DNA of 45,433 nt, the filler included, from Jimgerdemannia flammicorona (taxonomy: Eukaryota), in assembly GCA_003990765.1 (NCBI GenBank). It is 2 parts of 2 records of this genome, joined end to end, with 100 filler letters (N's around TTAATTAATTAA, not from the genome) between each part and the next. Parts side by side here need not be neighbours in the genome. Positions count along the whole stretch, not along the records: positions 1 to 22,668 come from RBNJ01001230.1; 1 more part is not named here. One strand, written 5' to 3'. The stretch's first letter is position 1; each line of letters opens with the position of its first letter. A model generated the notes under the pieces. That model saw only the letters and a program-made list of their open reading frames with translations. It did no database searches and was not told the origin of the DNA. Position numbers and translations under genes: made by a program. Positions 6,560-28,569 of this stretch are shown in pieces.

Positions 6560-7050
6560 TTCTGTTTATGTCTATAATTGTGAATTATTTTGTGTAAAAA
6601 GGAAGGTGGAATAGAAATAAAAATAGCACAAGTTGGATTTATTGCAGAGAGCCATGTTTTGTTATTCAGAAAGAATTATAAATAAAATTAAAATTAAAAG
6701 GATGACACATTCCAAGTCGGTTCTTCTATTGGACTCCCAAGCTTTCTTTTATATTTGTCCTGGGAGGGGGGTGCATCGAGGCGGCATTCCTGACGATAGA
6801 GGGTGCTCGGAGCAAAGGCAGACACTAGGTGTCATCGTGATCGATTTGCATTAGATGAAGACGGCAAGGAGAACAAGACGGGGTAGTCTATATTCGTTGC
6901 GTTTTTTGTATTCTATCTTTCGAGAATCGAGTGAGGATGCTTTCCAACGCTTGAGAATTTGTAAGCTCGAATTTCACTATGGGTTGGCGTGGGCTTTGTG
7001 GTGCAGGTATTTGATGTAGGCTGTGAAAATTTCAATCGGTTTCATGATAT

Positions 7051-7495
7051 GGGGCGTGCTGCAACAAAACCAGACAAAGTGAGCAAGTGAGATGAAAAGA
7101 AAAATTCAAATTTCCTTCCTCACATTCATCTCGAATGGAGTCGCGGGGAACCAATCCTGGTGTCACAACTGCCAGGAGTTCTTTCGCAAGGTTATACCTT
7201 GTGTTATTGGCATCACAGCGAAAAGGAGGAAGTGGTTGGTGGTCGGATGAGAGGATGATGGAGGCCCCCGAAAGAGCAATATTCGCTGCCACGTTTGCAT
7301 CCCTTCCTCTAGTGGTGTGGTTGATCCTCCTTGCTGGGCACCGGGGATGGACGTATTCAATGGCACCATGCAAATGGATGACTCGTTCTTTTCCATCAAC
7401 TGTCCTATGAGCATGATGGAGAATGACTTTGGAGAAACAGAACAGGCATGTCTTCGAAGAATTGTACTCGTTTGTAATCGCTACATTATCGTAGC
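7051..7495 (-). pseudogene. Fanzor1 (eukaryotic TnpB-like nuclease), C-terminal RuvC-II / Zn-finger / RuvC-III fragment
   Basis: One open frame: VAITNEYNSSKTCLFCF...HGAIEYVHPRCP...RGRDANVAANIALSG...LPPF. This matches the TnpB/Fanzor ExxSSxxCxxC...C...RDxNAAxNI signature. The N-terminal part is missing. Confidence 0.88.
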
Positions 7496-7898
7496 AGTCC
7501 TACCTCTGCCTCCAACAGAACCCCTACTCAGGCCCCACCCAGCAGTGACCCTCCAGTTCTCCCAGGACTTGCCTTCCCCTTCTCCCCAGACCTGCCTCCC
7601 TGAGCACCACTAGGCCACCCCCCTGCCTTCACCTTGTCAGCAAAGCTCATGAGCCTCACTCCTCCACCACCTGCACCAGGTACTGGATGCCCTCCAGACC
7701 CCCCCCCTGCCCACTCATGCTGTGAAGAAACCCATACCCATGCTATACCCACATCTGACATACTGCCACCTGAAGGCCCCAGGTCCACCCAACCAAGCAC
7801 ACCTGTCTGAACTCTTGTGCAATGTCATGTTGCTAGTCTCTTTTCATGGAAAGTGTTGTAAAAGCTTGTGTAATGTGAATTGTAATGGAGAAAAGGTG
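7496..7898 (-). mobile_element. 5' fragment (5' UTR and ORF1 start) of the L1/Tx1-like LINE
   Basis: Minus strand CACCTTTTCTCCATTACAATTC...ATGACATTGCACAAGAGTTCAGAC matches the LINE 5' end at about 19517. Peptide SFADKVKAGGWP matches SFANKVKVGGWP in that copy. Confidence 0.85.
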
Positions 7899-8986
7899 GT
7901 CTGGTTTTGTTGCAGTACACCCCATATAAGAGGTTTAAACTGTGTCAGTATTTATACTCCTGAGGTATGGTATGCAGAGTGTGTTGAACCTAAATTGCAC
8001 TGTAGAGCGCGCGGATGCCTTATTTAAAGCATTGGAGATTCCGGTCGAAATGGCGAAAACTGAACACCATTATCATTCATTCCGGAATGCTTCTTTTTTC
8101 CATATTCAGCCACACAGACAAAGCTAACAAATACATTCACCAACGTGACGAATTGGAATGTTTGAACTTCACACTTCTACCTGCCTGCGGAAGGCAAATC
8201 AATATTTTGGATGTCAATTGTCAGAAAGAACCTGACACGCAGTCGCCTTGACACGCATTCGCCTTGATACGACCATGTGGCTTCCTAGGCATATCATTCT
8301 ATATTTCCCAAGATTACTGTGCAATCAAAATGAGCAAATTCTGCTTCCAAAGTGCTTAATGCGGTCGATGGCCTAGTTTCGCTATAGCCTTTGGTTTGGT
8401 TCCACGAGTGGGTTCGACGGTTTCGATTCCTCAGAATTTTGCTTGTCTATGAAAAAAAGGAGCACTTTTCCCCGGCAACTAGACGAGGTTTGAAACGAGT
8501 TGTGTTGACTATTCCCTTGTTCGGTTCTGTGGTTCGCTAAACTGGACAATGTTATACAACCAATGCGCGTAATAGATCTTGGCGTATTTTTAGATGTTCC
8601 CTATTCGTTGGCGATGGGTTGTCGCAGCTATTTTACTTAGCAAGTCACCCTTATCCCTTTATTCAACCCTTATTCCTTTATTCAAGCGAATTATAAACAC
8701 ATGTAGAGAGGTCCATTGTTATTGTTGATGTTGGGAAAGCCACTACATCATTTTTATCGCAACTACGATAATATTCGCGCTCAACTTATTTACAATCAAA
8801 GTTAATCTTAAGCCATTGGAGTTTCAAAAACGACCACAAAGGAGGTTGACAATTAGAGTATCCCGACAGGACTTACATAGCGATTAGGATCACAAACGAA
8901 GTTGGCCACCTGGTCGACGACTTTCCCGGCTTTCCCTATTCCATATTCGGGAGTTTGAGTGGGACTAGGCAGAATGGTAGTGGTCG

Positions 8987-9997
8987 TCAGAAATATAATA
9001 GATAAATCGCCGAACCGAAAACGAAAACGAAACCGAAACCGAGACCGAGACCGAGACCGAGACCGATCACCGTCGCTATATGATGCGTGGGTTGCGTGGG
9101 TTGCGTGGGTTGCGGAGCGATGATTAATTCGTCCATTCCATCTTCGGAGACCTCAAATTCCTCGCCAAATGTTATCGTGCGGTGGTAGTATGCAAGCTGA
9201 AATTTTCGAGGCCGCTGAAATCAAAATAAGGTTTCTGCCTCTTTTCAGAACATACGTCTGACAGTACGTGGCAAAGTCGAAGATGGCAACGTGGCCTTCT
9301 TTATCTGTTTGTTCCGCCCAGAGAGAGCCTCGCAGACCCCGCGACGAATGCGCTATACTTCTTGCTCTTCGACGAGCCCAATCGTCCGCCCTTATAGCCT
9401 GTATACGACCTTTGGTTCGGCCTCGACGATGATAGCACCGCCGACCCTTTGCCTTTCCCCAGCTGCAGGATCTGCTTCTCGTCCAGGTGCCCGTTGCCTA
9501 ACTCCGGCTTATTCCCGTCGTGGTCATGCCCGTCGTGGTTGGATAGGAGAGAAGGTACGACGGAGTAGCAGCAGTTCAACAGGGAGGATGCGTGTCTCGA
9601 GTTTCTGGAGGTGTGAGCAAAGATCTGTCCATGATATAGTGCTGGAAAGCAGGTCCTGGCCATCCGGAACGAACGGAACGATACTGGTCAATTTTCCGGC
9701 ACCGGTCGTGGCCCGAGTAGAAGATGAATGTTGAATCGGGTCCATACGCTTGGCGAGCGAGTCGATCGCCTCAAGTATGGCTTCTTGCGTTGCTTTTTCT
9801 CCCGTCAGGGTGGTCACTTAACTCTCAGGATAGGCGCACCGAGACTTGTCGGTCAGGACATGCTTGAATCAGTGTGCGTCGTTAATGGTGCTTTCGAATT
9901 TGAGGGCGATTTTGCCAATGATGTCGGGTGCCAGTGGCAATGAGGAGGGCGTCACCCTTTGTGAAGGAGTCCAGTTTGTTTCCTCAGTGGACGACAT
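8987..9997 (-). pseudogene. caspase-family (peptidase C14) protease of bacterial type with C-terminal hydrophobic tail; apparently intronless, frameshifted
   Basis: Ordered motifs across frameshifts: FTKGDALLIATG; TINDAH*FKHVLTD..CAYP..VTTLTGEKATQEAIL; STFIFYSGH (His 9708-9710); LLNCCYS (Cys 9571-9573); GKGSAVLSSSRPNQRSY; YSAF...EALSG; QKPYFDFSGLENFQLAYY. Confidence 0.85.
9011..9113. repeat. hexamer repeat (CCGAGA/CCGAAA/ACGAAA)n and 9-mer (TGCGTGGGT)x3, coding in the caspase tail
   Basis: Directly visible. The minus frame gives PQPTQPTQPT and GLGLGLGLGFGFVFVFG. Confidence 0.9.
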
Positions 9998-10569
9998 GGT
10001 ATTTGGGTTGAAAACGATAATCTAGGTGTTTTTAAAAAGCATGCACATGCCGAAGTCATACATGGCATGCGCAGGGTCAGGTTGATGGAGATGTTTTGAG
10101 TTACACGTCCTAAATTAGACGTAAATAAACAAAAAGTGAATTGGGAAATACACCGAAACCAAACTCGGCTGTGATGTTAAGTTCAAATGTGTATATACGT
10201 TCGAGTACTCCCTCCATTTGTCCATAGATAACAGTTTCTTCGAATCGTCGATGCTGCACTATGTTTTTGCTGCTCGGTATCCTTTTCCCGTTGATCTCTT
10301 GATCGTGCTTAGAAAATCGACCTTTCTATATAGTGTTTTACGAGGAACACAATCAAAACACCAACTTTGGATTATTCCAGTATGAACAAGTTTGTGGCTT
10401 GGATTGGTGGCGGACCCCGTGATATTTCTATCGCTTAAGTGAAGCGTCGCAAAACGACCACGTTTCATAGCGCGCTTTTTTACCTGAAATGAACGAAATT
10501 CTGAAATCTGGAACTTGAAATCTCTCCTCCCTATTTTATTACTAATGGTAAGGCCCACGTAAGGGTGCT

Positions 10570-12815
10570 GCGTATGCATATAGAAAGCCTCAAGAGTTAT
10601 ACAGTTTTGTGAAGAGTTTGCACGGTCCTTGCAACATTGCGCCAACCATTCCACAACCTTGGTTTGGACGTCGCGTACCTTACAAAATGTGATACACAAA
10701 CGTCGCTAAGTCGCGAGATACTATACAACACAATTGAAATAGCCACCCTTCCTATTTTGGAGATGTCCGATGGAATGCCCAACAATCTTGAGGTTGACTT
10801 GCCATCTTTTCCCGACATTCCTTCATCCCCGTATGCCCGCTGCTTTCCGGAGGGCTCAGTCATAAAAAAGCAACGAGAATCTCGGTCAAGGCAGATGCAG
10901 CTCTGTAAGCAAAGGCACGGACGGTGGCCATCAAGAAATCAAAAGAGGGGTACGGAGAGTAAGGATGTAGAAACGATGGTGCAGAACGAATTGAAAATGC
11001 TCCACCATCTCCGCGAATCCCACCCTTCGACTAATACCGCCACCCCTTTTTTTAATATGGATTGTCATAGAATACGCGAAAAAACAGTGACCTCGGAGAA
11101 TTTCTTTGCAAGGGTAATCTAATGGGTCTGTGGCTGGCGAAAGTACAGTTGGGTTGGTTGGCATCTATTGCCCAGAATAGTGCTTGGCGGATTGAACTTT
11201 TAGAAGCTTTCTTGGTAACAAATCTCTTTTTCTTCCTCCCTTGGGAACATTGCCAAAGTCCTCATCATTGTTACGTTACACATGGTTTTCTGACACCAAA
11301 GATACTTTCCGCATAAATGGTTTCTGCCTGAAATAGTCGTGAGCTGTGTTAATTTCGTAATATTCAGGTTCGTGTGTGTTTCCTCATTGGTTTTATATCT
11401 TTATATTATTATAGAGCTCCCGACTTGGACATAGAAAGACGTTTGCCTCCATGCTAGGCGGCACCAGAACACTTGGTCGGAAACATCAAGATGAGTCATA
11501 AACAGTTAATACTCGCGGACATCTATGGATACGGCATGGTTGTATGGCAGGTCATTACGGATGGCGCATTGCCTTAACATGTTGATTTGAAGAACACGCA
11601 GTGTTTGCGGGGGAGGTACATGTAATAAACACAACAAACGACCCGCTTGGCGACTTGGGAGATATTCCTGATGGCGTGCCTCTAACCTTCCGAGATCTCG
11701 TACGTGAATGTCTGGCCTCGGAACCGTCTCACTGTCCATTACTTACTTCGATCCGGAAACGTCTTGAAAATTATCTACGGTATTTCAGACTTGTGTGAAT
11801 TATTGTTTGCAAATGTATAGTGTGTTCCAACTCGCGATCTCTTGTTGCTCGTTCATCCCCTGTTCATCATTAGCCAATGAAAGGGGAACACACGCACTGG
11901 TCGAATCTCTGAAGCAAAATTCCATTATAACCACGCTGCATCTCGAAAGTATGTCAGAACGTGTGAACTGTTGCTTGTGGCTGTTCGCGACCTGTGCGTG
12001 TTTGCCCATTCATTTCCCGTTCATCCTCAGGGAATCAAATCATTTCTGAAACAGCATACGCACTGTACGAGGTTCTGAGACAGAGCATGACCTGGACCGC
12101 ATTGAATCTATTTGGTGTGCTTGAACTGTGTGAACTGTTGCTTACACCTGCTCCAGCTCACAGTATTGATATGCCAATATATATGCAGGTATAATGATCG
12201 GCAGCGAGGGAGCACGAGCATTGGCCGAGTCTCTGAAGCAGAACAGGACCCTGACTACGTTGTATTTTGATCGTATGTTAGAACTGTGTGAATTTTTGCC
12301 TGCTGTTGCGTGATAATTTCAGCTCGCTACCTGCCTATCATCCCTTGTCCAGCTTCAGGCTACAGGATTGGTGTCGAGAGAACGCGCACTGGCCCCCTAA
12401 CAACGTTGGATCTCAATTGTATGTTGGAATATTGCTTGCAGCTGTGCGATGGTTCCAGCTCACGTCCAGCTTATCTATGCCTTGATTGTATGATAGAACT
12501 GTGTGCAATGCTGTTTGCAGCTGCGTGATGGTTCAAGTTCATGAGTTGTGAATGTTTACTGGTCTATCCTCTGTTTACCTTCAGACAACAAGATCGGCGA
12601 CGAGGAAGCACGCGAACTGGCCGGGTCTCTTATGCATATCACGACCCTGGCCCTCTCTGGTATGCTACATCTATGTGAATTTTTGCTTGCATCTGCGCGA
12701 TAGTTCCTATCTATGTTTGTTCGTCTATTCTCTATTCATTTTCAGTAAAGAGCATATGCAATGAGGGAGCAGGTAAGTCTCTGAAGCGGAAGGCGAACTA
12801 AATCTCAATGGTATG
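10570..12815 (+). pseudogene. protein kinase fused to RNI/NLRC3-type leucine-rich repeats (about one LRR per exon)
   Basis: Kinase motifs: VAIKK (10924), VQNELKMLHHL, WIVIEYA, HGFLTP, APE (11461), DIYGYGMVVWQV (11518), LVRECLASEP. Intron-separated repeats follow: ALVESLKQNSIITTLHL, IGSEGARALAESLKQNRTLTTLYF, NKIGDEEARELAGSL. Several stops and frameshifts; the 5' limit is approximate. Confidence 0.82.
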
Positions 12816-14759: not shown

Positions 14760-15300
14760 CCCTATCCAAAATTTCTAGTCTGGCCAGCTCTGTCGAAGGT
14801 CTTTCATCTGTCCCAATTGAAGAACATTACGGTTAAGGGCCTTAGAATCGCAAGGCCGTCCAGTGATTTCACACGCGATAGCATGACATACCCATCGACT
14901 TGCCATATGGTGGGTTCAACAATTGCCTTGGACATGGTTGAGCCTTGACATTTGTAATCTGTTAATGTATAGCAGGAGTTTGCAATCGCTTGACACGTAT
15001 TTTCTCCGTTTGTCCAGTCACAGTTTGTATTCAATATTGATATCACTCCATCTTGGTGTAATAGGGACCACACCAGACGATAATGATGTGATTTGTTTAT
15101 GTCATGGATTTTCAAGCTCATACGTCCCAGTTCATACACGATTTGCTTCAGTCTTCCTTTTGTTCCATTAACAACTCCATTATCATTACAAGCATTTCTA
15201 ATACAAGAGGAAGAAACCTGGAACTCCATCTGTTTGTCGATCGGACATTGAAAGTAGTCTCTTACGAAACGATGGTTCTGTAATAAAAACCTGCTTGTCT
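14760..15300 (-). mobile_element. PIF1-like helicase C-terminal fragment (probable Helitron relic)
   Basis: NGTKGRLKQIV...YTLTDYKCQGSTMSKAIV...YVMLSRVKSLDGLAILRP corresponds to PIF1/RecD motifs V-VI. Confidence 0.8.
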
Positions 15301-15653
15301 TCTATCAATGGCGCATGAGATTAAAACACGCTGTTTTTCTCTTGCAATTTAGAGATAAAGCGACGTTTTAACAACGGAGGCTTAGTCAAAATGGTTCGAT
15401 CACTCGAGTCACGTGTCAACGCATATGTAAATATGGCTTGTGATCTGTCGACGAGACTTTTTCCTTCAGATATGTCATTAATAAAAGGTTTGTAAAATCA
15501 TTCATTACTCTTGCGATTTACTGATAACTCTGCAACGAACAAAAGACGCGTCTGCGGCAGAGTAGAGATCTGTCGGAAGCCAGTTACTGGCAAGTCATCG
15601 TCTAGGAGATGGCCGGCCTTGAATGAAAGACATCCCGATTTAACGATTACTGA

Positions 15654-19516: not shown

Positions 19517-22032
19517 TCACCTTTCTCCTGTACAATTCGCGTTACACAAAAACTTCAAGCAACAGTTTTTGATACAACTAGGAGAAAAGATACTATCAAG
19601 ATGTCATTGAGCAAGAGTTCTGACGGGTGTACTGAGTTGGGGGGAGCTGGGGTTTTTGGCTAGCAGAAGGTGGGGAGGGGGTATGGTCTGGGGATGGGGG
19701 CCTTTGGAGGGTCGAAGGTGGGAGAAAGCTCTGGAGGTGGACCAGTATCTGGTGGATCTAGAGGAAGGTCTGGTCCCTCCAGCTTTGCCAACAAGGTGAA
19801 GGTGGGTGGATGGCCTACTGGAACAAGGGTTGGCACTGCTGAGGGGAAGGGCAAGGCTAGTGTCAGGAGGGGGAGTGGCCCTCAGAGGGGAGTGGTGAGC
19901 ATAGGGGCTGGTGGTACTATGGCTGGGGGTGTGACTGTTGATGGGAGTGTGATGGGGGATCAGGAAAAAAAAAGAGATGAGACGGCTGATGGCAGGGTGG
20001 GGCAGGAGTTCCCAATGCAGAAGGGGGACCTGGCCGATGGTGTAATAGAGCTGGTGGTGGCACCATTACTCAAGAAGTCGATCTCGGAGTTTGTAGTAAC
20101 TCTGTACTTCTGAGGCTTAGGGGTGATGGCAAGGATAGTCTTGGGGCTTATCTTGAAGCAGGTGGCTGAGGCAGCTTTGGTGAAATTCCTGAAGGGTCTG
20201 GAGGGAGTTGAGGTGGGCTTTAAGGAGGTGGGCCCACTGGAAGAGGTGCTGAGGGTGGGAGTGGCAGTTGGAGAGGTGGTGGTCCTCATGGTACGCTGTT
20301 TGAGGTGGGACCCCAGGGTGGTGCAGCTGCTGGTGAAGGGGGTGCCCACAGTGATGAAGGAGGAGACAAGGAGGAGAGTAGAGGAGGTGATGGCAGAGTA
20401 TGGAAATGTAGTGGATATTGGCTTCCAGGTGTGGGAGGGGATGATGATTAGGACTAGCGATGTTGATGTCAGGATTCGGCTGGCAGGGAGGGAGGCCACA
20501 GGGAAGGCAGGTGACTGGCCCTCAGTATTGATGTGGGGGGCCTTTATTTGTAAGGTGTCGAGGGTGAAGGGGAGTGAGGAGGAGGAGGAGGATTTGTTGG
20601 AGGTATTGGAGGAGATGAGTGGTGTGGTGGAATGGTGGGCAAAGGCCTGGAAGCTCTATGAGGAGTCAATGCACTTGGAGATTATAGAGGGAAAGTATAT
20701 CTGCACTGACAAGAGGCAGTGGGAGTGGGCCCAGGGGTGCTTGAGGCAGAGGGAGCTCTTGGCGAGTATGATAGGAGGGGAGAAGAAGAAGGTTGATGGG
20801 ACTGAAGGGTCTGGAGGTGTCAAAGTCAGTATATGGGCTAGCGAAGGCAGAAAGGAGGCAGTGGTGACAGAAGAATGGGCTGCGAAGGTGCTGAGCAGGG
20901 ATCCCTATGCAGATGGTACTTTCGAGGTCTGGGAGGAGGAGTCAGATAGTACCCCCCCCCCCACTTATCAGGAGGGGCCCGGTGGGGTAAAGAGGGGCAG
21001 CGGAAGATGTACCAATGCAGGGGGCCCAGTAGGTTACCTTTGGGGTCCCAGATGTGGTGAAAGGGGGCCAGGTGGTGGCTGTTGGTAAAGACGAGCTGGT
21101 GGATGTCCCAGAAGAGGAGTGGAATGAGGATGCCAGTGTAGGTGTGGATACTACAATGCTGGATGCAGAGTGGCCAGAGACCCCTGGAGGGAAGGAGATT
21201 GGGAATCTGCTGTGGATGAGCAAGGTGATAGATAATCTTACAGCTGAGATATTGGGGGAAGTGGATCTGAGGGTCATGCTGGAGGAGCACTGGGCACAGA
21301 TTCTGCGAGGTGAGGGAGTGGTGGAGGTGCTGAAGATGGAGATTCTTATGATACTACTGGAGGAAGAGGGTTATGAGGTGGATGAGGTGAGGAAGGTAGA
21401 GCTGGTGGTTGTTGTGGGTGAGCAGGCAGCCTATTATTGGGCAGAATGCCATGGTTTGTAGTTCTGGTAGGAGGCCTGTGGGAAGTATCGGGAGGACTTT
21501 GAGGAGAAAGAGGATGGGGCAATGGTTGAACTTCTGGAGGGATTGGAGGCACAGGGAGCTGAGAAGAAGGAACTGGCTGCAGAATATGTCTTGGATTTGG
21601 CACAGGAGGACTTAAGTGTGGATTTGTAGAGAAGAGATTTAATCTTTAACAATATTCCTCATGAACAGTACAACTAACATTTTCTCTCTCAATGTGAATG
21701 GTCTTCGAGGATCTGGGTGGCATAAGAACATTTTTACATGGCTAAAGGGATTGGAGGCTGATCTCTTTTTACTGCAGGATGTACAGTGTGAGGATGAGGA
21801 TGATCAGGTCGAATGGACTAGGAAATGGGGTGGGGCTACCGCTTGGTTTGGAAAGGTGGTAATTCTGATAAAGAAGGGTAGAGGAGATTTGGAGGAGATC
21901 AAGAACTGGGGAGATCAATTGGTCTGGTGTGAGTGGCACCAGTCAGGGTGGAAATCAGTGAGGGTGGGCTCGTATTACTGCCCGGCAGCTAGGGGAGAGA
22001 GGATTGCGTGGATTAAGGAGCTACTACTGGAC
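19517..22032 (+). mobile_element. L1/Tx1-like LINE 5' half: ORF1 (19601-21630, disrupted) and start of the ORF2 APE endonuclease (21661-)
   Basis: MNSTTNIFSLNVNGLR...ADLFLLQD is the AP-endonuclease N-terminus. Colinear with the minus-strand copy at about 37260-39650; ends abruptly near 22032. Confidence 0.9.
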
Positions 22033-22668
22033 GGTCTCCACCTATGGCAAGCGCTCTATTGCTTCCCAGGATTGACATGTACTGAAAAGATAAGACAGTA
22101 GTATGTAAAAGCAAGATCAGTGAAACTGTGGACGTAATCGGCAAGGTTTTCTAGGACACTGGCGTCAAAATAGCGCATGTAGTTCAGTGAGTAGTGTTTT
22201 TTTATGATACCCACATCACCGACAAGACATTTATTTGACGCAGAATGTTCAGGAAATGGATCATTGTGATTGTGCGGCGACTCTACACCGAATACCACTT
22301 TTTCAACGACGTGCTTGACGCGCTATCCTTTCTTTACAACTCTCATATGATCTTTCACTACCTCTAGGAGTTTGATATTCACCAAGGCTTCTAAAGCTTA
22401 CTCTTCCAACTCCGCGCATATCTTCATCTGCATCTCCACCAGAGCCCGGTCTCAGAGAGAATCTATCGACCGTGGTTACTAGCAATTTTAGTTTTGGAGA
22501 ACTACTCAGGGTGCGGACAGACGAGAGGAACAGAGACGTCAAATCCCTGGAGGGGGTGGGGCCCTTAGGGTGGTCGCTGTCGGCATCTGGTGGAAGGGAT
22601 TTTGTAAGAAGAGTGGTGGGCAGGTTGCAGTGGTTAACGGTATGGTTGTCTTTGAGAGGGTGGGGGTG

Positions 22669-25771: not shown

Positions 25772-26120
25772 GTTGTAGGATCAGAAAGATCAACATTTGT
25801 GCCAATCAGTCCTTCTTCTTGACTGGAAATGGGATTGTAGAATTGTGATTCCTAGCAATGAGTAGAATTTCTCCAGTATAGTCTGAATCGATAACTCCTC
25901 CTTCGATTGTGATTTCGCTTCTAGCCAGGTTGCTTCTTGTCTTGAGAATCCTGACATGATCCTTTGGGATAGTCATCTCCAGTCCAGTTGCGAGTAGGGT
26001 GGTTGTCTGGGGTTCCAGTACAGTCTCTTCTACTGTAGTGATGTCCATTCCGGCTGCATTTTCTGACTTATATTCTGGCAAGACTGCATCAGGGTGGATC
26101 TTTTGAATCTTGACCTTGAT
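25772..26120 (-). pseudogene. dut: retroelement-borne dUTPase domain
   Basis: Trimeric dUTPase motifs 1-4 are recognisable. The motif-4 Arg is TGA, and motif 5 is cut off by the insertion ending at 25771. Confidence 0.9.
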
Positions 26121-28569
26121 TTCTTCTTCATCATCACTGTCCTCCAGGAGGGCTGGTGGTTCATCATCTTCCTCCTTCTCTTCTTCCCTGATCTGTTTTT
26201 TGAGAGCTTTCTGCCTTCTTTCCTGGTGGTTCTTCTTGATTCTGATAGTACACTGGTAACAATCATTGATATACTCTATATAGTACATCTTGATCCCATG
26301 AGGACAGATTCCTTGTGGGACATAACCTTCTGTGATCTTCTTGTACCATTCTTCTTTACTTATCTATCCAACTTTCTTCTTCTTTGGAGTAGTCACCATA
26401 TAAGCTTCCTCTTGCTTGCTCTCTTCTTCCTCTATGTTAGGCAGGACTCCTTTATTGACATTGATGGGAATTCATATCTTCTATCTCCGGTAGGTGATCT
26501 GCATCTTCTGGGCATTGAGATCAATTACTGCTTTGGCTTTGTGAAGCCATTGATTGCTGATGAGGATGTCATAGTTAGTGGCATTGATTACAATTACATC
26601 TACTGAGATGGTTGCTCCTCCAATCTTGATGGGAATATCTTGGATCTTTCCCAGAGGTGTGGCTCTTGTGCCATTGGCTGTGATGAATACCAGCTTAGTT
26701 GCTTCTTCTACATTCCAACCTAGGCAGTCCGCTGCCTTCTTGCTGAGGAGACATCCTCCTGCTCCCGTATTAATGATGGCTTTAAAGATTCTATCTTCAA
26801 TTTGGCATATTGCATAAGCAGAGGTTTTGCAATTGTCCTCACTTTCTTCTCCTGAGTCCTCTTGAACATTATTGGTCTCAGTTATCTTCCATCCTTATTC
26901 CTTAGTTGTTTCGGCAAGTCCAAACCTCATTTGCTGTCTAAATGTTAGGATTTCTGTGAGCTGACCAAAGGTTGCATTGATCTTTTATTGACTAAGGTCC
27001 TTAAAGATATCATACTTGAAGGTCTTGGTCTTGTGAAGCTTCTTTTCTTTTTCTCTTTTACTGGCTAGAGTGGTTCCTTGGATAATATCTTGAACTGCTT
27101 GTTCCAGCTTCATATCTTGGTCCATCTCTTCAGCTTGGCTTTTGGTGGCCGTTTCCATCTGCTTTTCTACTGGGTTCTTCTTGGGTCTTCCTGGTGGTCT
27201 TTTGTAGAGTTCCTTGTGAACATCCTTCTTAGTAGTCTGAGCAGGATAAGCCTCCCATTCTTCTTCATCAGAATCTCCAATTTCCTTGAAGGTAATTGTA
27301 TTGGCCTGCTCCTTGTTTCATATAGCATTGCTTGATTGAGCCTTATACTTGGTTTTACTCATACATTCATAGGAGTAGTGGCCTTCTTCTCTGCAAGTAT
27401 AGTAAGTGCCTTTCTTCTTGTCTGAGGTGGTGGCAAACTTCTGGACAGGGTGGCAGTCTCTTCCTCGAATTTTCTTTACTACATCTCCCAGGTGGGCAGT
27501 CATTTCGGCAAACCTTTTGGCGAGTTCCTCCATAGGGTCACTGTTCTTTTGCTGCTCTGTAGCTTTTGGCTGAGGTATGTTTCGATTGATCATTGTGGTA
27601 GGGATCATACTAATTACCTTGAGTGCTTCGATTTTGACTCCCATGACCCTTTCCATTGTATGGTCTTATGGATGTCTGGCTATCCAGTATCACTGAGCAT
27701 AGGTGACCTTCTGTGGCAGATCCAGAATTACTGGTGATGAACAGATGGCCATGGCTATTTCTGGGTGGACTCCTTTCATGAAAATTGCTTTGGCTACTTG
27801 ATATCAGATAGCAGCAGCATAATCTACAAGGATTATCTGATATCGAATTCTGGTATAGATGTGTTTAGATCCTTGCTCATTCCTTGGTATGTTGTATTGA
27901 GCTGATCCTTCAGGGCTTGTTTGATCTCGTCTGTATAATATGTATTTCAGAGCCAGGTCTTCTGTGCTATCAGTATAGCATTGTCATCATTTTCTGCATG
28001 AGTTGTGGCTGTGAATACTACTCTGGCAGGACCTTGTAGGCTGAAGAGCATGAGGGCTACTTGCTGTACTGCTGTCAGGGTCCTTACAGTGGCATACTGC
28101 TCAAAATCATCAATGAAGGTAATGATTAATTCATCTGAGGTATATGTATCTATAGAATACTGGTGGTCTCATATCTATCTTATCTGGGTATTGGGGCTTG
28201 GTTTGTATGGTTGTTTGGATAGTAGCAGTTGTTCGTTATTCAGCTTGAAAGTGAGGGATTCATCTTGAATCACCAGCCAATGGCACCAAGTTGTAATGTA
28301 GTGGATGCTTACTCTTGAAAGTACATTAGATTTCTGTATCTTAAAAACTGACTGTTCTGACTCTTGCAGAGTCTCTTGAAGTTGCAGGAGAGGGTGGGTG
28401 AGTTCGAAGTGTATCTGCCCACAGGCTTACTAGTTCCTTTGCTATCTCTTTGCTTTGAACTATTTCTATCTGAGGTTTATTTACTCGAAGATACTGGGTT
28501 ATTTATACAAGTTTTGCTAGCTATGAGATGGTTACTGGGTTACATGGCTAAGTTATGAGTCATTTAACA
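25772..28569 (-). mobile_element. Ty3/Gypsy-like LTR retrotransposon 5' part: LTR, PBS, gag, protease, dUTPase (degenerate)
   Basis: TG...CA LTR at 28292-28569 and PBS TGGTGCCATTGG. Gag includes FIDDFEQYA...LQGPA and the knuckle YYTCREEGHYSYEC; protease is IINTGAG; dUTPase is AAGMDI...KTRSNLA...GGVIDSDYTGEI...KD*LAQML. Confidence 0.9.

Follow-up and report, generated by a model that had tools for sequence, protein, structure and literature searches.

The window analyzed here is a stretch of 45,433 nucleotides from the genome of the fungus Jimgerdemannia flammicorona (assembly GCA_003990765.1), positions 1-22668 of which come from contig RBNJ01001230.1 (G000:C1230). On its minus strand lies a pseudogene that is a dead duplicate of a single-exon gene for a caspase-like cysteine protease. 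A DNA search of the genome found one close relative, G000:C13374 (79% identity, E 7e-227), an intact single-frame open reading frame (ORF) of 388 amino acids whose product is identical to an NCBI J. flammicorona protein. The pseudogene and this paralogue align colinearly with no intron-sized gap, and 218 of the 276 comparable residues in the first 310 codons are identical. The caspase motifs cited in an earlier note on this DNA, YSGH and NCCYS among them, are all on the minus strand and are scattered over three frames, and the colinear alignment bears out the note's description of an intronless sequence. In NCCYS, the Asn of the family occupies the position of an Asp found in prokaryotic relatives and metacaspases. 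The boundaries given in the note, 8987..9997, were right at the start of the gene but not at its end, since homology reaches 8830 and the 3′ flank shared with the paralogue continues to about 8550. The GC content of the pseudogene is 0.53, compared with 0.42-0.43 in its flanks. The features of the locus are collected in Table 1.

Table 1. Coordinates of the caspase-like pseudogene, its motifs and lesions, and the adjacent gene (positions in the window)
Feature	Position	Strand	Basis or remark
Intronless C14 caspase-like pseudogene	8830..9997	-	Runs from the ATG at 9997 to where the paralogue has its last codon; aligned to G000:C13374 as DNA and by codon
FTKGDALLI (FxxGxALLI, first strand motif)	9939..9965	-	Out of the ATG frame because of a 1-base deletion near 9980
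STINDAH	9892-9872	-	Caspase-family motif
Premature TGA (Trp43 of paralogue)	9869..9871	-	Codon-wise alignment to paralogue
CAYPES	9838-9821	-	Caspase-family motif
Premature TAA (Gln60 of paralogue)	9818..9820	-	Codon-wise alignment to paralogue
EKATQEAI	9799-9776	-	Caspase-family motif
YSGH, catalytic His motif	9708..9719	-	14-base deletion immediately after
NCCYS, catalytic Cys motif	9562..9576	-	6-base deletion after
GKGSAVLSSS	9453-9424	-	Caspase-family motif
QKPYF	9237-9223	-	Caspase-family motif
FQLAYY	9202-9185	-	Caspase-family motif
9-base tandem repeat, 3.4 copies, in linker preceding the hydrophobic stretch	9084..9114	.	Sequence
Hydrophobic stretch of pseudogene	8990..9070	-	Kyte-Doolittle mean 2.14 over the best 19 residues; lines up with the predicted transmembrane helix of the paralogue
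Third premature stop, TGA (Trp330 of paralogue)	8987..8989	-	Codon-wise alignment; end point in the earlier note
3′ flank common to pseudogene and paralogue	8550..8829	-	65% identity
Kinase and LRR-like gene, decayed, head-to-head neighbour	10763..12700	+	tblastx to L183 and L184 (kinase) and L180 (repeat exons)

The protease domain of the pseudogene has 11 frame-shifting indels with respect to the paralogue, two of which cancel each other within three codons, and the frameshifts number 9-11 in all. Indels of 1, 1, 1, 14, 1, 1, 1, 10 and 1 bases occur, and several times along the sequence they cancel out to a net frame of zero. The His and Cys motifs lie behind two stops and in different frames, and the dyad was not found in any one frame. 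Pfam recognized neither of the two longest caspase frames, and the contig was not among the matches of a genome-wide PF00656 search; the earlier note had remarked that no single ORF reveals the gene. Because single frames score nothing, the pseudogene is assigned to the family through its alignment to C13374. The two genes also have in common some 50 bases on the upstream side and some 300 bases of 3′ flank, which indicates that the copies arose by duplication at the DNA level. Comparison of the two over 271 codons gave a dN/dS of 0.12/0.30, and the tree branch of the pseudogene is longer than that of the paralogue (0.19 vs 0.09); these values fit selection followed by decay.

The lesions were checked in contigs from two public runs, X1 and X2, which have a depth of 2.3-2.4 and cover parts of the gene, the middle being uncovered. 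The X1 contigs, which may derive from the source sample of the assembly, match 9865-10109 and 8789-8977 with zero differences and carry the frameshifts near 9980 and 9928. The X2 contig covers 9591-9808 and belongs to a different haplotype, with three substitutions and an 8-base insertion, and it retains the frameshift near 9743. Read depth at 8993-9069 stems from a microsatellite and was disregarded. It is very improbable that the gene is alive and that sequencing errors, tiny introns or recoding account for its breaks. Such a view could draw on the repeated return of the frame to zero and on read support that is thin, partial and in the case of X1 perhaps not independent of the assembly, but two stops interrupt the ATG frame, indels of 1-14 bases are too short for introns and strike beside both dyad motifs, and the second haplotype has one of the same frameshifts. 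The window copy has almost certainly decayed and makes no protease, as the earlier note had concluded from the TGA (9871) and TAA (9820) stops and the frameshifts.

The family to which the pseudogene belongs is large. A PF00656 search of the genome gave 13 matches, one to an intron-bearing canonical metacaspase and 12 to members of the present family, and a search with a paralogue as query gave 33 matches at 29 loci, 14 of them open-frame and 15 broken or partial; these locus counts are lower bounds. The intact paralogues that the earlier note suggested looking for are present, with kin in Endogone and Calcarisporiella. His and Cys are both retained in 12 of the 14 open-frame paralogues, and His is lost in the other two, one of which is fused to a BTB domain (L132:1405-3087, plus strand, G000:C2821). 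C13374 passes the curated cut-off of PF00656 (51.7 bits vs 21.4). Its AlphaFold model (pTM 0.68) matches metacaspases, GSU0716, legumain and MALT1 with E values of 1e-7 to 1e-9, so that the predicted structure of C13374 has a caspase-like fold. A sequence search of solved structures produced weak metacaspase matches only, and the look-alikes of the family in the ESM Atlas are in clusters that are 98-100% bacterial. Two further members stand out. A broken copy, 83% like the C1797 gene, is found within a repeat of at least 2.8-3.2 kb that is 96% identical across four contigs (L131, L134, L135 and L137; G000:C98, C8136, C20318 and C20223), and a mobile element probably picked it up and spread it. 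P0173, from Jimgerdemannia, combines a caspase domain with a P-loop region and a short motif like the tails described below, of which Pfam names only C14; we take this architecture to resemble Crinkler-type layouts.

Named eukaryotic matches elsewhere come from Jimgerdemannia, Endogone and Calcarisporiella thermophila, the latter on a 1.7-Mb contig, and no other named eukaryote was found among 53 and 70 matches. Two papers place Calcarisporiella as the sister group of the remaining Mucoromycotina (PMC6899921, PMC12574304). High C14 counts have been reported for other early fungal lineages, not for Endogonales (PMC8778642). The caspase family was not found described in the literature covered, from which the supplements of PMC9815663 and of the preprint on BASS motifs (bioRxiv 10.1101/2020.01.06.895854), which could list such proteins, were left out. 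Likewise, no report on caspases and horizontal gene transfer in Jimgerdemannia was found in a coverage that excludes most subscription journals.

To place the family, a profile was run on 1.84 billion representative proteins, and the best 150 of 754 matches, at E 1e-30 or better, were considered. Twenty family rows came first, followed by 130 proteins at 171-219 bits; the same profile gave fungal metacaspases 12-27 bits. Twenty of the 130 were looked up, and two were from named bacteria and two from Endogonales. A GTDB scan with an alignment of the profile matches yielded 79 named loci, 64 with a usable protein, many of them in Chloroflexota and others in Cyanobacteria, Myxococcota, Bacteroidota and other groups, and a scan of GTDB genomes and metagenome contigs with the fungal alignment gave zero confirmed loci. 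The motif C[AG][YF] occurs in 28 of the 32 rows of the fungal family and 51 of the 64 named relatives from prokaryotes, and in none of the 73 metacaspases, in agreement with the earlier note, which had regarded such motifs as bacterial in type. QTSAD has the opposite distribution (0/32, 0/64 and 67/73, respectively). Asn precedes the catalytic Cys in 30 of the 32 family rows and in none of the 64 prokaryotic relatives. For all 32 rows the best BLAST scores were 72-214 bits to named prokaryotes, a set picked for likeness to the family, versus 25-56 bits to metacaspases, and identity to the best named bacteria is about 30-38%.

In a mixture-model tree of 69 rows, the 16 family rows, including the reconstructed pseudogene, form one clade (100/100) inside a 33-row clade (99/93) together with six named prokaryotes, five from Chloroflexota and one from Acidobacteriota. 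The 11 metacaspases stand apart on a very long branch, the clades being separated at 100/100, so the pseudogene does not group with the vertically inherited fungal metacaspases; such a grouping would have spoken against the transfer inferred in the earlier note. A tree of 49 rows, which drops 20 of the 69, including long branches and the pseudogene, agrees in nesting the family among bacteria (97/88), and every free tree does so. Some results weigh on the other side. Most of the near matches looked up (16/20) lack an organism name, the metacaspase branch amounts to about 4-5 changes per column, and the approximately unbiased (AU) test against a union of family and metacaspases, made with this very long outgroup branch, gave p values of 0.036 with 69 rows and 0.076 with 49 rows. 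The long branch makes the root weak, and the borderline p values make transfer likely rather than proven. Taken together, the evidence makes it very likely that the family is of bacterial origin, with a Chloroflexota-like bacterium as the probable donor.

We also consider it likely that the family entered from a bacterium once, close to the root of Mucoromycotina or of a group made up of Endogonales and Calcarisporiella, and that birth and death of copies followed. A more complex history, with two transfers or later passage from fungus to fungus instead of one old transfer and loss in Mucorales, is possible but unlikely. It would explain the Endogone protein P0155, which retains the Asp of the bacterial proteins, shares 44% identity with the bacterial relative L033, joins the family at just 63/81 and has no orthologue in this genome (best 34%), as well as the position of the Calcarisporiella copies inside Endogonales diversity, with the subfamily of the window copy (90/72, 93/83). 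However, the members of the Asn-type family fall into a single clade (100/100), the family's GC content and its GC content at third codon positions (GC3) resemble those of host genes, and P0155, which may be a second transfer, may also be an early branch of the same one. Less probable by far is that the family is an old vertical eukaryotic C14 lineage that most fungi have lost, or that it branched off the metacaspases and evolved fast. The reduced-set AU test (p 0.076) leaves the union with metacaspases unrejected, the presence in Calcarisporiella shows that the family is old (PMC6899921, PMC12574304), and the profile results cover the best 150 of 754 matches at E 1e-30 or better; nonetheless, all free trees, the diagnostic motifs and the bit scores favour bacteria, the genome keeps a separate intron-bearing metacaspase, and other named eukaryotes are missing from the 53 and 70 matches. 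Bacterial contamination or a chimeric contig, suggested by an intronless gene richer in GC than its flanks (0.53 vs 0.42-0.43) in an assembly fragmented into 35,354 contigs, can be dismissed as most improbable, because the 29 loci lie on separate contigs beside intron-bearing genes (a spliced kinase and LRR gene next to the pseudogene, spliced ankyrin genes next to paralogues), relatives occur in other fungal genera, including the 1.7-Mb Calcarisporiella contig, the best named bacteria are just about 30-38% identical, and pseudogene and paralogue have non-coding flanks in common.

The C-terminal regions of the proteins suggest how the family may act. In all 11 intact paralogues tested other than C13374, an acidic linker is followed by a Gly/Asn-rich tail, and Gly plus Asn make up 20-47% of the last 45 residues in all 11 tailed copies of this genome. 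For 12 intact paralogues, each tail was scored, with 1000 shuffles, against the opposite-strand sequence in the 1.5 kb preceding every gene. The tail matched its own head-to-head neighbour in three of the 12 (scores 60, 74 and 56; 0/1000 shuffles each), and the off-diagonal scores had a mean of 28.5, a standard deviation of 4.8 and a maximum of 56. Two of the matched partners are ankyrin-repeat genes whose first exon contains the motif and has a canonical splice donor at its end; the third is a Sel1-repeat gene truncated by its contig end. One protease-partner pair is duplicated on its contig, the duplicated pair including a broken protease. A whole-genome search with the partner's first exon found only two partner exons and two caspase tails, all on the same contig, the tails with weak E values (0.4-0.5). 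The core VQIG, like the RHIM/PP/BASS3 signature (bioRxiv 10.1101/2020.01.06.895854), is present in one tail of the family. A matching N-terminal motif in the adjacent gene was found at the level of the family and was lacking at the pseudogene locus.

The pseudogene and C13374 have no Gly/Asn-rich tail (Gly plus Asn 11%) and have instead a hydrophobic helix, predicted to be transmembrane in C13374 (Kyte-Doolittle mean 2.24). In the pseudogene this stretch comes mostly from a 6-base microsatellite at 9013-9066. A further 55 residues beyond it are found in these two copies and nowhere else in the genome, and the C-terminal 92 residues of C13374 match only themselves and the window copy, plus one match at E 0.25. 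A predicted membrane anchor probably replaced the tail before the duplication. In P0003, a second record of the same species, the translation of the catalytic-Cys region is out of frame, pointing to an orthologue that is either disrupted or misassembled.

Pairing was also found in the bacterial relatives, where the tail matches a neighbour at 19 of 57 loci. Of 16 neighbours scanned, nine match nucleoside triphosphatase (NTPase) families of the STAND type (NACHT, NB-ARC and other STAND), and six match EAD10 or EAD7; partners resembling NOD-like receptors (NLRs), that is, with NACHT or NB-ARC, are thus found among these relatives. L033 and L043, two of the near relatives with names, each have a STAND gene as partner (scores 77 and 80, 0/1000 shuffles), which in L043 is directly upstream of the caspase. 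In this Anaerolineales locus (L043:2798-6026, plus strand) the STAND NTPase and caspase genes are one base apart, and a RHIM-like motif and a zinc-ribbon-like stretch are both common to their outer ends. A motif common to the C-terminus of an effector and the N-terminus of the adjacent receptor is regarded as a mark of amyloid signalling (PMC9815663, PMC12261475, bioRxiv 10.1101/2020.01.06.895854). Together, the match of tail and neighbour and the STAND pairing in bacteria suggest a candidate amyloid-type link from sensor to protease, as judged from sequence.

In the mechanism that we propose, a repeat-protein sensor encoded head-to-head with the protease would bear the short N-terminal motif. 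Once activated, the sensor would template an amyloid-type assembly of the matching motif at the C-terminus of the protease, and this assembly would cluster and activate the His-Cys domain. The subfamily of the pseudogene and C13374 has about an even chance of having been a protease tethered to the membrane and activated by clustering there. With Asn instead of Asp ahead of the catalytic Cys, the specificity may have moved away from Arg/Lys. That the family serves in immune or cell-death signalling by induced proximity is somewhat favoured, and the explanation as a whole, a dead copy of a bacterial-derived caspase family with sensor-clustered activation, appears reasonably likely.

Several observations tell against this mechanism. 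One off-diagonal score, between two related pairs, reached 56, and eight of the 11 tailed paralogues have no matching neighbour. The fungal ankyrin and Sel1 partners show no NTPase match, and NLR partners were not found among them. The fungal tails align unconvincingly with those of L033 and L043 (best own-genome results 21 and 26 of 1000 shuffles). The window copy itself lacks the Gly/Asn tail, and its head-to-head kinase gene is not common to the paralogue. There is a lesser possibility that the tails are docking peptides or low-complexity ends and that the proteases do housekeeping or developmental cleavage. The unmatched tails and the partners devoid of NTPase fit such a role, as does a genome search for gasdermins that found none with Pfam PF04598, a model that is weak for fungal forms; in addition, some bacterial tails are EAD10 or EAD7 adaptors, domains that link effectors to core components (PMC8195603). 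What renders it unlikely is that the sharing of pair-specific motifs by adjacent genes is the published criterion for amyloid pairs (PMC9815663, PMC12261475), together with the Gly plus Asn content of all 11 tailed copies and the RHIM-like VQIG core in one of them.

Other candidate components were considered. Searches of the genome for NACHT and NB-ARC gave two and 49 matches, respectively. One of 20 NB-ARC loci fetched, L155:1033-2226 (plus strand, G000:C8327), encodes an NB-ARC protein with an N-terminal stretch, identified by eye, that is Gly/Asn-rich and loosely like the caspase tails. Its best scores as a tail partner, 50 and 48, were weak and it was not counted as a pair; it is possibly an unlinked receptor. 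Head-to-head with an intact paralogue lies a long open frame, L019:3-2681 (minus strand, G000:C814), with a weak MACPF match (E 0.004). MACPF proteins were dropped as general substrates, the four MACPF matches of the genome being on contigs without family matches, and the L019 product is a possible substrate at that locus only. At L159:600-2972 and L028:6871-8394, both on the minus strand, there are a CHAT protease fused to a STAND NTPase and a similar CHAT-like frame, recognized by eye and with no Pfam match, that adjoins the paralogue C3151.

Among known systems, the nearest in sequence and in the tree are the bacterial C14 and STAND NTPase pairs of Chloroflexota, Cyanobacteria and Acidobacteriota, which include EAD10, EAD7 or TCAD2 parts (PMC7159879, PMC8195603). 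Like these, the fungal proteins have an N-terminal protease and a short C-terminal motif that is matched at the N-terminus of the adjacent gene. They differ in the Asn before the catalytic Cys, in partners that are spliced, NTPase-free ankyrin or Sel1 genes placed head-to-head rather than in operons, and, in the pseudogene subfamily, in the predicted membrane anchor. There is also a likeness to the amyloid motif pairs (fungal HRAM, PP, sigma and PUASM; bacterial BASS1-10; PMC9815663, PMC12261475, PMC7889193, bioRxiv 10.1101/2020.01.06.895854), in which an effector tail is matched by the N-terminus of an adjacent receptor-like protein and the motifs are Gly/Asn-rich, some with a RHIM-like core. 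In the available parts of those papers, the effectors of the pairs are HeLo-like, Bell, PNP-UDP, hydrolase, TIR, cyclase and CHAT domains (CHAT, TIR, hydrolase and cyclase being those named with BASS motifs), their receptors are NLRs, and their hosts are Ascomycota, Basidiomycota and bacteria. A C14 protease as the effector, partners without NTPase and Mucoromycota are all absent from those parts (in the main text of PMC9815663, caspase, C14 and Mucoromyc- have zero occurrences), and the window copy has no motif.

The fungal type I metacaspases (Mca1/Yca1) have in common with the family the caspase-hemoglobinase fold and the His-Cys dyad. The family is nevertheless in a separate clade, is devoid of QTSAD and has Asn in place of the Asp of D-x-C-H in 30 of 32 rows, and the metacaspase of this genome is a different gene, with introns; the family is not of the Mca1 type. 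It also lacks the Pro/Gln-rich N-terminal prodomain that is a feature of Mca1. The CHAT proteases that activate fungal gasdermins (PMC10197012, PMC12881547) are caspase-like proteases as well, located in cell-death clusters with ANK, TPR or WD40 sensors, but they belong to a different family (PF12770) and usually form a fusion with the sensor, and PF04598 detected no gasdermin here.

We propose tentatively, at somewhat less than even chances, that an early-diverging fungus took both a bacterial caspase and its amyloid-type logic of recruitment and rewired them to ankyrin or Sel1 sensors free of NTPase. Mucoromycota are plant symbionts that host endobacteria. If the proposal is correct, the fungus has an inflammasome-like circuit of sensor, adaptor and caspase built independently of animals, with at least 14 open-frame paralogues that carry distinct tail codes and include pseudo-enzymes, domain fusions and a membrane-anchored form. 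With a protease tail matched by a partner's first exon, the reach of amyloid signalling would widen to include Mucoromycota and an effector of the C14 caspase kind. The interest rests in the family, the locus itself being a pseudogene: here a bacterial immune protease may have turned into an expanded fungal gene family, which bears on the repeated gain of cell-death parts by eukaryotes from multicellular bacteria.

The earlier note spoke of intron-rich neighbours, and the intron-bearing one next to the pseudogene is the gene that begins at about 10760 on the plus strand, a decayed protein kinase followed by LRR-like exons with introns between them. The kinase-bearing loci used for comparison, L183 and L184, are Pkinase by Pfam, which gave no name to the frames in the window; we take the repeat exons, from their consensus, to be leucine-rich repeats (LRRs). 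The contig of C13374 has no match to this neighbour beyond 55 bases, and its lack there leaves a functional link with the caspase possible but unsupported. Other elements were seen in the window. A minus-strand frame at 7035-7499, with a CxxC pair and an RDxNxAxNI-like motif but no Pfam match, presumably resembles the end of a TnpB/Fanzor nuclease. The fragment at 14807-15301 (minus strand), also with no Pfam match, ends in what resembles motif VI of PIF1 helicases and may be left over from a Helitron. An ankyrin-repeat fragment (Pfam E 0.0024) lies at 1393-1722 on the minus strand, and remains like those of a long interspersed nuclear element (LINE; endonuclease E 0.0003) at 20114-22100 on the plus strand. 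On the other contig of the window, an element at 25806-27665 (minus strand) has frames that by eye are dUTPase-like and aspartic-protease-like, and similar frames of L023 match those Pfam families.
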